64,000 nucleotides of DNA from Roseibacillus sp. (GTDB lineage Bacteria > Verrucomicrobiota > Verrucomicrobiia > Verrucomicrobiales > Akkermansiaceae), in contig JBPOGI010000001.1 in assembly GCA_051251855.1 (NCBI GenBank), positions 1,120,001 through 1,184,000 on the forward strand, read 5' to 3'. A program made the position numbers and the translations under genes. Numbering within the stretch: the stretch's first letter is position 1; each line of letters starts with the position of its first letter. Positions 37,814-41,438 of the stretch are shown in pieces. Below the pieces are notes generated by a model, which was not told the DNA's origin, ran no database searches, and worked only from the letters and a program-made list of their open reading frames with translations.

Positions 37814-39436
37814 CTACTCCGCCTGATGAATTGTCACCTGGGTGAACGGAATGCCCCATTCCTTCTCATTACACACCTCAACACAAATCCGCTGAATCGC
37901 TCTCTTCAGCTTCTCATAGCGGTCCGCAGCCTCTCCTTTAAAGTCCGCCATAATGGCGTAATCCAGCGATGATGCCCCAGCAGACGCAAATTCAACATTC
38001 ACCGAGTTCAACTGCTCGCGGTCTGCTAATACCTCAACCAACCCTGCCGCTAACTTAGCCTTAAAAATCGCCGCGACCTCCGTCGTCGCGATTGCTTGAT
38101 GCGCATAGTCGATCCCGAATATCGCTTTCACTCGAAAACTCTTCGAAAGATTGGCCGGCGCCAGCGCCAGAAAGTCGGGAGTAAGATACGTCTCCCGCGT
38201 TCCTCCCAGTCGCACCAGCTGCACATACTCCGGAGTCTGCGTCACCACCTTACCCATCGCATCATTCGCCAGAACCCAATCTCCCGTCTTCGTCGGAAAC
38301 CACGATTCAGAAGGATCATGCGGACGGGAGCGAAGCGTGCTCAACCTCTTAATCGACATCCGAATCAATCCCCCCGTGAGTTCACAATTTCTCAACTCCG
38401 TATAAATCCCTATTGTTCCCACCTCCCACGGAACTCCCTCAAAGGTCAGTCGCTCTCCTTTTCTAACAGGACCCAAATTCAAGAGCATCTTCGTCTGCTC
38501 AAACGTCTTCGGAATCGTGCTCTTCGCCGTCCATCCCAGTCCCACTAGCAAGACGATCGCCAGAGTCAGCAGCAGCCAATCACCACTAAAATAGAGCACA
38601 AACAGAGCCGCTACCGCCGCCAGACCCCCCGAAATCACCACCGCGCTCAATTCCAGCAATCGCCAACCAAAGGCCCCATGATTCTGCTTTCGAACCAGAG
38701 GCAGCTTGCCAATCATACGCCACAACCAACGCAAGAAGAGCCAAGTTCCCGCCAAGGCGCCCACCGCCTTCAGAAGATTCAACCCTCGCCCTTTAAAGAA
38801 ACTCTCAAAAGCATCACTGACGGGCTTCAACACCGGCTCCTTCTCTGCCTCCTGCTGCTCCATCTGAACCGCCAAGGCTTCTAACTGCCCCTCGGCATCG
38901 TTCTGTCGTCCCTTCCACAATTCCCTCAACTCCTCGATCCGCTGCCCCGTTGACGACTCCGTGCCCCCGTTCCATCGAGAAAGACGTTCTAGGGCATTCT
39001 TGGCTAATTCAGCCTGTTCGCTCAGCCTTTGTTCGCGTGCCCTGAGCATCTCTGTTTCGCGTGGACGCTCAGTAGCCTTCTTCATCGCCCTCACCCCGGG
39101 TCGCAGAATTTCCTTCACCTCTTCTGCCAAATCTAAATTGGCCTCTTCCGCTGTTTTTAAGTCCTCACCCCGCACCCCCGTTGCCAGCTCATCGAATTGA
39201 TTCTTCAGCTCGTCGAGCCGGGCCGCCAACTCCGTCTCTCGCCCTTGGGCCGTTTCCACATCTTCCTGAGTGGTCTTCCCTCCCAACTTCACATCCCTTA
39301 CCAACGAAAGAGCGCTACTCGTGTCATCGATTACTCCCGCGAGTTTCACCAATGTCTCCGCCGTCTTATCATCAACCTCACTATCCGCCCATAGGAGCGC
39401 AAAGCTGAGAAACCAAAGGAAAAAAGGGACACGCAT
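37814..39436 (-). CDS. MscS-family mechanosensitive channel-like protein with periplasmic coiled coil
   Basis: Signal peptide, coiled coil, 3 TMs, GPVRKGER beta domain, GIPFTQVTIH end; start moved to 39436 because a terminator occupies 39484-39521. Confidence 0.8.
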   Translation of the reverse strand: MRVPFFLWFLSFALLWADSEVDDKTAETLVKLAGVIDDTSSALSLVRDVKLGGKTTQEDVETAQGRETELAARLDELKNQFDELATGVRGEDLKTAEEANLDLAEEVKEILRPGVRAMKKATERPRETEMLRAREQRLSEQAELAKNALERLSRWNGGTESSTGQRIEELRELWKGRQNDAEGQLEALAVQMEQQEAEKEPVLKPVSDAFESFFKGRGLNLLKAVGALAGTWLFLRWLWRMIGKLPLVRKQNHGAFGWRLLELSAVVISGGLAAVAALFVLYFSGDWLLLTLAIVLLVGLGWTAKSTIPKTFEQTKMLLNLGPVRKGERLTFEGVPWEVGTIGIYTELRNCELTGGLIRMSIKRLSTLRSRPHDPSESWFPTKTGDWVLANDAMGKVVTQTPEYVQLVRLGGTRETYLTPDFLALAPANLSKSFRVKAIFGIDYAHQAIATTEVAAIFKAKLAAGLVEVLADREQLNSVNVEFASAGASSLDYAIMADFKGEAADRYEKLKRAIQRICVEVCNEKEWGIPFTQVTIHQAE

Positions 39437-39483
39437 CAGCAGAAGAATAGAACCGAGCTCAATCAGCAACAAGACCCCAACCG

Positions 39484-39521
39484 AAAAAAAAGAGGCCGTC
39501 CTCCAACCGGAAGACGACCTC
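39484..39521 (-). terminator. Rho-independent terminator of the ylbF-like gene
   Basis: Minus strand GAGGTCGTCTTCC-GGTT-GGAGGACGGCCTC then T8. Confidence 0.9.
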
Positions 39522-39532
39522 AGAAATTTAAA

Positions 39533-39555
39533 CACTGGCCGACCGGCCAGAAGTG
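39533..39555 (-). promoter_or_regulatory. Candidate bacterial SECIS element
   Basis: CTGGCC-GGTC-GGCCAG hairpin, loop starts 22 nt after the UGA at 39566-39568. Confidence 0.7.
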
Positions 39556-39556
39556 A

Positions 39557-39997
39557 TTAGCAGCCTCATCCGCCGCCGCCGCCTTCGGCATCACCGCCAC
39601 CGCAGCAGCCGTCATCTTGAGAAGCAAAGTCCTCACTTGTCGGAACCCGCCCAAGCTCAAGAGTCATCCCCACATACTTGCCAATACTTCCCTGCAAAGT
39701 CTGCAGCGCCTGCTGAGCGTTCAAAAAGCTGGTCGCTACCGGATTTTGGAAAAGAGCTTCGCGAGCGGTCTCGAACTCCTTAATCTCAGTCTCTGCTAAC
39801 TGAAGACCAGCCTGCTGCTTCTGATTGAGTTCGTCGCCCCACTCCTGCACTTTGCGAAAGCCGTCACGAGCCGTATCATCCGCAAAAAATGCCTCTACAT
39901 CCTTCTGCAAAGCACTGAATTCGGCATCTCCAGCAATCGCCGCGCAAAGCTCGCGCGTCTTCTCCATAACAGGTGAACTGTCTTCCAAGATATTCAT
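39557..39997 (-). CDS. YlbF/YmcA (RicF/RicA) family protein, predicted selenoprotein ending GGG-U-GC
   Basis: All-helical YlbF-like body (KTRELCAAI, NPVATSFLNAQ); tail CCGGGDAEGGGGG-TGA-GGC-TGC-TAA; SECIS-like hairpin follows. Confidence 0.78.
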
Positions 39998-40127: not shown

Positions 40128-41438
40128 ATGAACTCGAAGCCCATCGCCATCGCCTCAGTTTGGGGAATCTCCGTCGCCGCCGCTTTCTTTGCTGGCAAAG
40201 CCATTTCTCCCTCTGCCAACGAGTCCGTCGAGACCATTCAGGCGGCAAAATCTACTGCCAGCATCGGCAATGAAGGTTCATCCAACCTCGTCTCCACAGG
40301 AGGAAGCACCACCAGTATGGCTTCCGCCCGAGCCCGTCTCGACGCCGCTCCCATGATTGAGCGCGGCTCGACTCCCGAGCAAATGATTGAGGACATCGCC
40401 CGTTTTGATGATGCCATCGAGCGTAATAACGCCCTCCTCGCCCTCATCGATAGTCTCTCTCCCGACGAATTTCTCTCTGTTGTCGACTCCTTCAGACAGT
40501 TAGGCATCACCGACGAGCGAAGAGGCGAATACGAGATGCTCCTAACCGCATGGGCTAAGGTCAATCCTTCCGAAGCACTCGCCTACGCCTCCGAGAACAC
40601 CCGTGGTGGTTTCGCGCGCAACACCATTCTTTCCACTTGGGCAGCCACCAATCCTGACGCTGCCATTGCTTGGGCAGAATCCAACCACGACAATCCCGAC
40701 CGCGCAAATCCTTGGCTTGTAGGAGTCATCGAAGGCATCGCTCCCTACGATATCAGCCGGGCAACCGATCTCATGGAGACCCTTCCCCGTTCTGAGCAAC
40801 GAGGTGAAGCCCTCCGCAGTGTCCTCTCTCAACTCATGTCCAAGGACCCCGAAGATGCCAAAAACTGGACCTCCACCATTGAAGACGACTACCTTCGCTC
40901 TGGTGCCGCAGCCTACACCGCCGAAGCCATTGCTCGCAAAGACCCCGCCGATGCAGCCCAGTGGCTCGCAAGTCTTGGCGATGTCGATGCCCTTAATCGC
41001 GCTGGTGAGGACATTACCGAGGATTGGTATCGCGACAATCCGGAGGAAGCTACCGCATGGATCAGCACGCTGCCCCCCGAAGCCATGAGCGAAGCAGCCG
41101 AAGGAGTCGTAAGTAATATTGTTCGCGAAAATCCTGTCGAAGCTGCCGAGTATCTTTCTCAACTGGCTACTTCCAACCCCGATGCCAACTTCGACAGCGC
41201 CATCCGCGACCTCGTGCGCGGAGCTGGCCGCAGCGATCCAGAACTCGCCGCCATTTGGGTAGGTGGTCTCAGCAACAGCGACGACCAGAGCCGATACTAC
41301 CACCGCGTCTTGGGTGATTGGAAAAATAGGGACTCCGGAGCGGCCGAACAATGGATGATACAAAATGAAGCCAGCCTTCCCGAATCCATCGGACGCCGCT
41401 TCCTTGGCCGCCCTGACCAAAACAACGGAGGCCAGTAG
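40128..41438 (+). CDS. Membrane-anchored alpha-helical repeat protein
   Basis: N-terminal TM; repeated W-x-x-x-[DN]P-x-x-A-x-x-W units. Confidence 0.8.
   Translation: MNSKPIAIASVWGISVAAAFFAGKAISPSANESVETIQAAKSTASIGNEGSSNLVSTGGSTTSMASARARLDAAPMIERGSTPEQMIEDIARFDDAIERNNALLALIDSLSPDEFLSVVDSFRQLGITDERRGEYEMLLTAWAKVNPSEALAYASENTRGGFARNTILSTWAATNPDAAIAWAESNHDNPDRANPWLVGVIEGIAPYDISRATDLMETLPRSEQRGEALRSVLSQLMSKDPEDAKNWTSTIEDDYLRSGAAAYTAEAIARKDPADAAQWLASLGDVDALNRAGEDITEDWYRDNPEEATAWISTLPPEAMSEAAEGVVSNIVRENPVEAAEYLSQLATSNPDANFDSAIRDLVRGAGRSDPELAAIWVGGLSNSDDQSRYYHRVLGDWKNRDSGAAEQWMIQNEASLPESIGRRFLGRPDQNNGGQ

Follow-up and report, generated by a model that had tools for sequence, protein, structure and literature searches.

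A probable YlbF-family selenoprotein gene in Roseibacillus with a SECIS-type hairpin beyond its stop codon

Background

RicF (YlbF) of Bacillus subtilis and Bacillus anthracis is a small helical protein of the Com_YlbF family that pairs with a like subunit. According to the accessible text of PMC6751060, its Gly/Cys-rich C-terminal tail ends in C-G-C; C134 and C146 of Bacillus RicF, together with C167 of RicT and C141 of RicA, hold [4Fe-4S] cluster 2, and C138 and C144 do not ligate the cluster. The Roseibacillus protein described here likewise belongs to Com_YlbF, is predicted to be small and helical and to pair with a like subunit, and has a tail of the same kind; however, it differs from RicF in that selenium would occupy the first position of C-G-C, in having C-C rather than C-x3-C, and in an extra invariant cysteine, Cys18.

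The SelB/SECIS system of the Escherichia coli fdhF type combines a UGA codon with a short GC-rich hairpin bearing a G-U apical loop, and selA, selB, selC and selD are present. The loop of the fdhF SECIS is GGUC, as in the hairpin of Roseibacillus ylbF, where the other elements of the system also recur. In contrast to the E. coli fdhF type, the ylbF hairpin lies entirely beyond the true stop.

Reviews describe the bacterial SECIS as lying within the coding region (PMC13188914 and PMC10778597, in their accessible parts). The accessible part of PMC10778597 also reports that an engineered bacterial SECIS in the 3' UTR was used to produce mammalian thioredoxin reductase in E. coli (Arner et al. 1999), and that a SECIS placed after the stop works. 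That construct resembles ylbF in having Sec within the last few residues, near a Cys and in a flexible tail; however, the ylbF arrangement is natural, its end is U-G-C rather than C-U-G, and the fold and function are unrelated. The motif itself appears in the table of a 2026 review, which, in its accessible part, names the DUF1573 protein and the UGC-containing TlpA family among U-G-C selenoproteins (PMC13188914). These share the Sec-Gly-Cys motif, but theirs is internal and stands in thioredoxin-like or DUF1573 folds.

A UGA codon in the tail of a Com_YlbF gene

The window, that is, the whole 64,000-nucleotide stretch of Roseibacillus DNA to which all positions refer, contains an open reading frame on the minus strand that starts at ATG 39997 and is called to end at TGA 39568-39566, giving 143 amino acids. 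Directly behind this TGA, and in the same frame, stand GGC (39565-39563), TGC (39562-39560) and TAA (39559-39557), which would encode Gly, Cys and the true stop (39557..39565, minus strand). With the last Gly run in protein letters, the 3' end of the gene reads ...GGGGG-TGA-GGC-TGC-TAA. When the TGA is translated as U, the protein has 146 residues and ends in ...DDGCCGGGDAEGGGGG-U-G-C; on this reading, which draws on the sequence, its translation and a Pfam match, the coding sequence with its TAA stop occupies 39557..39997 (minus strand). The UGA (39566..39568, minus strand) is codon 144 and aligns with Cys codons of relatives. The preliminary description of this locus had given the tail and its coordinates correctly, as the minus-strand sequence and translation confirmed.

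The protein matched Pfam Com_YlbF (PF06133) with an E-value of 1.8e-15 and 57.7 bits against a cut-off of 23.9; the match aligns residues 10-112 with profile positions 1-103 out of 105. The N-terminus is in accord with those of the homologues. By sequence, the nearest solved structure was B. subtilis YheA (UPF0342; PDB 2OEE; E-value 4.6e-5, residues 16-114), which belongs to the same Pfam family; the match covers the helical core only and none of the Cys/Sec tail. The YlbF/YmcA equivalog models of NCBIfam (release 20) gave weak matches only, at approximately 20 bits against cut-offs of 130-200.

Alignment with 41-42 relatives placed Cys18, the C-C pair and the terminal C/U-G-C among the invariant or nearly invariant residues. 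The cysteine at residue 18, in helix 1 (approximately 39944-39946, minus strand), was the same in 42/42 aligned relatives. The tails of more distant relatives retain four Cys, and His is often added (CGCH, CGCSH, GHGHSH).

Alternation of TGA and Cys codons among relatives

Of 401 sampled genomes from the same GTDB family, 390 contained the gene. Among the best 30 family loci, 16 had TGA-GGY-TGY-stop and 14 had TGC or TGT at the same codon. The preliminary description had proposed that TGA replaces the first Cys of C-G-C and that TGA and TGY should alternate at the DNA level; both were borne out, since the relatives carry TGY at exactly that codon. Sixteen extra family matches flagged as containing one TGA all ended in U-G-C-stop (16/16). 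The forms with TGA at this codon (Sec forms) thus came to 32 genomes from four genera of one verrucomicrobial family: three in the genus of the window (g1), 26 in g11, one in g9 and two in g12. Further loci from the selA-positive genera g15, g20, g9 and g12 were Cys forms in 10/10 cases.

The coding signal beyond the UGA is short, two codons only, and across it Gly-Cys-stop followed in frame in 32/32 Sec forms, with synonymous third-base variation (GGT in 4, TGT in 2). All three stop codons served as the true stop among these forms (TAA in 22, TAG in 7 and TGA in 3). The in-frame conservation together with the synonymous changes indicates that both codons are under protein-level selection. Since the same arrangement recurs in 32 genomes, the TGA is not peculiar to one assembly; this point, like the conservation of Gly-Cys-stop, is one on which the preliminary description had made its reading depend.

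The Gly codon before the UGA (39569-39571, minus strand) was GGA in 29/32 Sec forms (GGG in one, GGC in two); at the equivalent codon, just 1/14 Cys forms of the same family had GGA. This skew suggests that A is the favoured base directly in front of the Sec codon. Between C-C and U-G-C, the Gly linker (approximately 39575-39610, minus strand) holds acidic, Ala or Ser inserts in most Sec forms (DAE, EGE, EKS and others); in most Cys forms the Gly run is unbroken.

Most of the 120 database homologues listed end in ...GGGGCGC, with or without one or two extra residues, and about a fifth end in ...GGGGG, precisely where the first Cys would stand. A phylum-level sample of 401 genomes contained the gene in 59, and 28 new loci (L060-L087) were listed from it; no Sec form occurred among their 23 readable tails (L082-L084, L086 and L087 were left out). 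A locus flagged as containing two TGA codons, in a genome of another family (G764), proved to be a plain double stop, TGA TGA, and was rejected as a Sec form.

Scanning one genome per species across GTDB for the exact pattern gave 58 matches, 25 of which had a YlbF frame upstream; the other 33, without YlbF, are about the number expected by chance. All 25 YlbF-bearing matches came from records titled Akkermansiaceae, Verrucomicrobiales, Verrucomicrobiia, Verrucomicrobiota or Roseibacillus. Judged by their titles, these 25 records are all metagenome-assembled genomes, and the homologues named after cultured Roseibacillus species (P0009, P0018 and P0020) are Cys forms. No cultured strain with a Sec form turned up among the database homologues and the 25 pattern-scan records.

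Selenium machinery

The genome of the window, in an assembly that is 95.4% complete, contains selA (376 bits), selB (331 bits, above the cut-off), a tRNA-SeC and a selD gene that has one in-frame TGA itself. The machinery on which the preliminary description had staked its reading, namely selA, selB, selD and tRNA-Sec, is therefore all present. Across the family sample, selA occurred in 124/401 genomes, and all 32 Sec-form genomes were among these. The genera g3 and g5 lacked selA (0/102 in each), and no flag for a single TGA appeared there among the matches listed.

The selD gene (L010, contig 7) reads ...CAG-U-ASK... around its TGA, which is preceded by GGA. Approximately 27 nt past this TGA lies a hairpin with the stem ACGCA/UGCGU and the loop GGUCU, the core of which is the same as that of the ylbF hairpin.

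A SECIS-type hairpin in the 3' UTR

Folding and comparison identified a SECIS-type hairpin at 39535..39550 (minus strand), in which a 6-bp stem formed by CUGGCC (39550-39545) and GGCCAG (39540-39535) encloses the loop GGUC (39544-39541). The hairpin begins 15 nt past the TGA and, because no more than two sense codons are left after the UGA, falls completely within the 3' UTR, beyond the TAA. The first nucleotide of its loop is the 22nd after the UGA, inside the UGA-to-loop distance of 16-37 nt that the accessible part of PMC10778597 gives for the bacterial SECIS.

The hairpin test was fixed before counting. It required that the stem have 5 pairs or more, that the loop measure 3-7 nt and include GU, and that the loop begin 19-34 nt from the TGA, counted from its first base. 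The test was passed by 31/32 Sec forms, by 6/35 Cys forms and by 878/6400 shuffles (13.7%); these shuffle controls overstate independence, because the 32 Sec forms are related (26 in one genus-level clade) and 16 of them had been picked for their TGA. Thus the hairpin goes with the TGA forms, as the preliminary description had supposed, and occurs in Cys forms at approximately the chance level. The single Sec form that failed was L058 (genome G128, genus g12). A comparable hairpin with the loop AGUU is present in L058, approximately 15 nt further from the UGA than in the other 31 and near or beyond the usual distance range.

The stems of the Sec forms vary (CUGGCC, CACCAGCC, GAGCA, CGGCA, CGCUCC, GUGAGCA, UCCUGA, GCCUGC and UCAGUG). 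The loop is kept as GGUC, (A)GUU(U/C) or GUC while the stems differ by lineage. In the MAFFT alignments A1 and A2 of the post-TGA region, the hairpins fell out of a common register because the loops have 3, 4 or 5 nt; a covariance model was therefore built on the majority register of A1, giving alignment A4 of the 32 Sec forms. In A4, which is fitted to the model's own structure, compensatory changes with both sides altered were found at 6/6 stem pairs, 85.7% of the cells were paired compared with 21-44% when the partner was slid by 1-3 columns, and the covariation score was 0.462 against 0.176 for shuffled alignments, with 0/500 shuffles as high. Under the model, the scores of the Sec forms ranged from 32.6 to 74 bits, and the highest score of any Cys form was 23.4 bits.

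A tree was built from the core sequences of 32 Sec forms and 16 Cys forms (48 in total), in which 16 of the Sec rows had been picked for their TGA; it required at least five Sec/Cys changes, at least four of them forced by well-supported branches. The protein of the window was sister to a Cys form (support 98/84). With at least four to five changes of label on the tree, TGA and TGY have been swapped repeatedly, and the hairpin has been gained or lost along with the TGA.

Recoding or termination at the UGA

An intrinsic terminator lies at 39484..39521 (minus strand), with a 13-bp stem (39521-39492), the loop GGUU and a run of 8 T (39491-39484). The preliminary description had set the first hairpin apart from a separate strong terminator, and 39484-39521 is where that terminator was found. 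A terminator-consensus scan also flags the first hairpin, with 6 pairs and 5 T in the next 8 bases. Since both hairpins are terminator-like, one sequence alone cannot separate their roles, but comparison with relatives does. T runs are missing after the hairpin in several relatives.

These observations bear on the reading that the UGA is an ordinary stop, that the protein ends in ...GGGGG without C-G-C, and that the hairpin serves RNA stability or termination. Public records and gene callers do end the protein at the UGA, still under the name 'YlbF family regulator', and the hairpin does pass the terminator scan, which is a loose one. To our knowledge, Sec insertion in bacteria is never complete, so that some truncated product is to be expected. 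However, an ordinary stop does not fit with the in-frame GGY-TGY-stop and its synonymous changes in all 32 TGA forms, nor with a hairpin that 31 of them carry and that Cys forms show at the chance rate. The separate strong terminator, the missing T runs and the confinement of the TGA forms to selA-positive genomes (32/32, when 124/401 is the rate in the sample) also speak against this reading. Termination at the UGA is therefore very improbable, and the comparative sequence evidence indicates that ylbF is very probably a genuine Com_YlbF-family selenoprotein gene in which the UGA is recoded as selenocysteine.

In such recoding, the hairpin 15 nt downstream would recruit SelB and Sec-tRNA(Sec) while the ribosome holds UGA 144 in its A site. 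Sec would be inserted in place of termination, Gly and Cys would follow, and the ribosome would stop at the UAA. The separate terminator begins 14 nt beyond the hairpin, which means that the hairpin stays on the transcript.

Comparison with the RicAFT complex

The preliminary description went on to picture the protein as an RNA-maturation regulator acting with RNase Y. Its Bacillus background was right, in that C-terminal cysteines of RicF help to hold cluster 2 of RicAFT (PMC6751060, accessible text); the proposed role did not hold up, since the RicT, RicA-paralogue and RNase Y genes, including the yaaT/PSP1 and rny genes that it had suggested looking for, were not found in the genome of the window. 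RicT/PSP1 (PF04468) was not found in that genome or in any of 41 genomes (40 relatives and the genome itself), and the B. subtilis control was positive. A second YlbF/YmcA gene was not found either: the one PF06133 match in the genome of the window is the gene itself. With one Com_YlbF gene only, there is no RicA partner. RNase Y (TIGR03319) had no match in the genome of the window and none above the cut-off in the 41 genomes, in which the search returned only weak matches of approximately 20 bits to one domain.

A RicF subunit in a RicAFT-type complex with RNase Y, with Sec as a ligand of the shared [4Fe-4S] cluster, would be in keeping with the common Pfam family, the similar Gly/Cys tail and the ligation of cluster 2 by RicF C134 and C146 in Bacillus (PMC6751060, accessible text). 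However, neither PSP1/RicT nor a second Com_YlbF gene was found in a genome that is 95.4% complete, RicT and RNase Y were likewise missing across the 41 genomes (RicT in 0/41, RNase Y above the cut-off in 0/41), and the Bacillus cysteine that aligns with the UGA, C144, is a non-ligand according to the same source. We regard this reading as scarcely tenable. Roseibacillus thus differs from the RicF system in that searches detected none of RicT/PSP1, a RicA paralogue and RNase Y in its genome, and neither RicT nor RNase Y in the relatives covered. The selenoprotein would instead act alone or with unknown partners, outside any Bacillus-type RicAFT/RNase Y complex.

Neighbouring genes

A divergent gene of 436 amino acids (40128-41438, plus strand) encodes a protein that has a hydrophobic segment at its N-terminus and 'DP..A..W'-like repeats. 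Pfam gave no match for this gene or for the other flanking genes in the Roseibacillus family. In another genus, too, the 436-aa gene lies next to ylbF (44% identity, E-value 2e-87), and it is a possible functional partner of ylbF. On the other side, a mechanically called open reading frame of 573 amino acids (37814-39535, minus strand) has its GTG start codon within the SECIS hairpin and extends across the terminator; the true start of the downstream gene probably lies beyond this, for example at the ATG near 39436. This downstream gene had no Pfam match and was not conserved beside ylbF in another genus. Outside the family, the context of ylbF differs (CTP synthase, RF, HflX and others) and gave no functional lead.

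A modelled homodimer and the role of the tail

A natural Cys orthologue was modelled as a homodimer from a 41-row alignment of database proteins. The ipSAE was 0.73 against 0.00 for the best control, which may reflect likeness to the solved RicA/RicAF structures; the ipSAE mark was reached by 20/30 proteins solved as same-chain pairs and by 1/23 proteins solved as single chains. The runs agreed in at least 94% of contacts, with a pLDDT of at least 84. In the model, the subunits meet through helix 1 and the last helix, with Cys18 of helix 1 in the interface near the two-fold axis; the tail lies outside the confident interface. On this model, Cys18 could add to the thiols of the tail.

The product may thus be pictured as a small helical bundle, paired as in the modelled homodimer, with a flexible Gly-rich C-terminal tail bearing C-C ... 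U-G-C. The two tails of the dimer, possibly with Cys18, may bind an Fe-S or other metal centre between them, or a selenenylsulfide may form; replacement of sulfur by selenium at the first residue of the terminal C-x-C would make that position more reactive. A metal or Fe-S centre between the tails of the homodimer is a tentative reading, to which we give close to an even chance. The four cysteines and frequent histidines in the tails of distant relatives look more like a metal site than like a redox switch or shuttle.

In a switch or shuttle, Sec144 and Cys146 would form a reversible selenenylsulfide on a mobile arm, perhaps exchanging with the C-C pair, much as at the Cys-Sec end of mammalian thioredoxin reductase; the recoding would be unchanged and the chemistry alone would differ. 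Many selenoproteins have homologues among the thiol oxidoreductases or contain redox motifs, and other families with a U-G-C motif stand in the same review's table (PMC13188914, accessible part). The Sec would also sit in a Gly-rich and presumably flexible tail outside the confident interface of the model, and the aligned Bacillus cysteine, C144, is not a cluster ligand (PMC6751060, accessible text). Apart from the metal-like tails of the distant relatives, what counts against a redox switch is that no thioredoxin-type partner or domain was seen beside the gene. Its chance appears somewhat below even.

The correspondence with Bacillus also bears on the metal-centre reading. If the two terminal C-x-C motifs are equivalent, Sec takes the place of C144, which does not ligate the cluster, and this counts against Sec as a simple Fe-S ligand; these low-complexity tails give no confident alignment of Bacillus C144 with Sec144 across phyla. 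With neither RicT nor RicA found, the set of ligands must in any case differ here from that in Bacillus.

Incomplete insertion of Sec would also yield a product without the tail end, and selenium supply could then, as a speculation, set the ratio of the two forms. A fuller version of this idea, which we consider unlikely, is that of a stand-alone YlbF homodimer with an Fe-S or other metal centre between its tails and Sec as a direct ligand, in which selenium supply picks the ...U-G-C or the ...GGGGG form and the protein works as a selenium- and redox-responsive switch without RicT or RNase Y. If true, it would provide a naturally selenium-ligated cluster in a regulator-type protein that is not an enzyme.

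Implications

Full-text literature searches did not find YlbF described as a selenoprotein; the BSepDB family table lay outside their coverage. PF06133 and YlbF are absent from the family table of the May 2026 review PMC13188914 as far as its accessible part goes. The four deep-Sep supplements contain no YlbF, PF06133, YmcA or verrucomicrobial names, and no selenoprotein model of NCBIfam release 20 was found to match the Roseibacillus protein. The statement in the preliminary description that this family was not known as a described selenoprotein therefore stands across the searchable papers, family tables and NCBIfam. Because these proteins are truncated at the UGA in public records and bear the name of ordinary YlbF regulators there, annotation pipelines miss them.

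With this gene, the bacterial selenoproteome would gain YlbF, a family without known enzyme activity, the members of which are adaptors or regulators whose tail binds Fe-S. Selenium placed in the very tail that carries the chemistry of the family would mark the first residue of the terminal C-x-C as reactive, and would offer a handle on the role of YlbF outside the Firmicutes, where searches detected neither RicT nor RNase Y. The gene would also provide a natural bacterial insertion hairpin that lies wholly behind the stop, an arrangement so far described as an engineering device in the accessible part of PMC10778597. Finally, the repeated switching between Sec and Cys among close marine relatives would make this family a small and clean system for asking when selenium pays.
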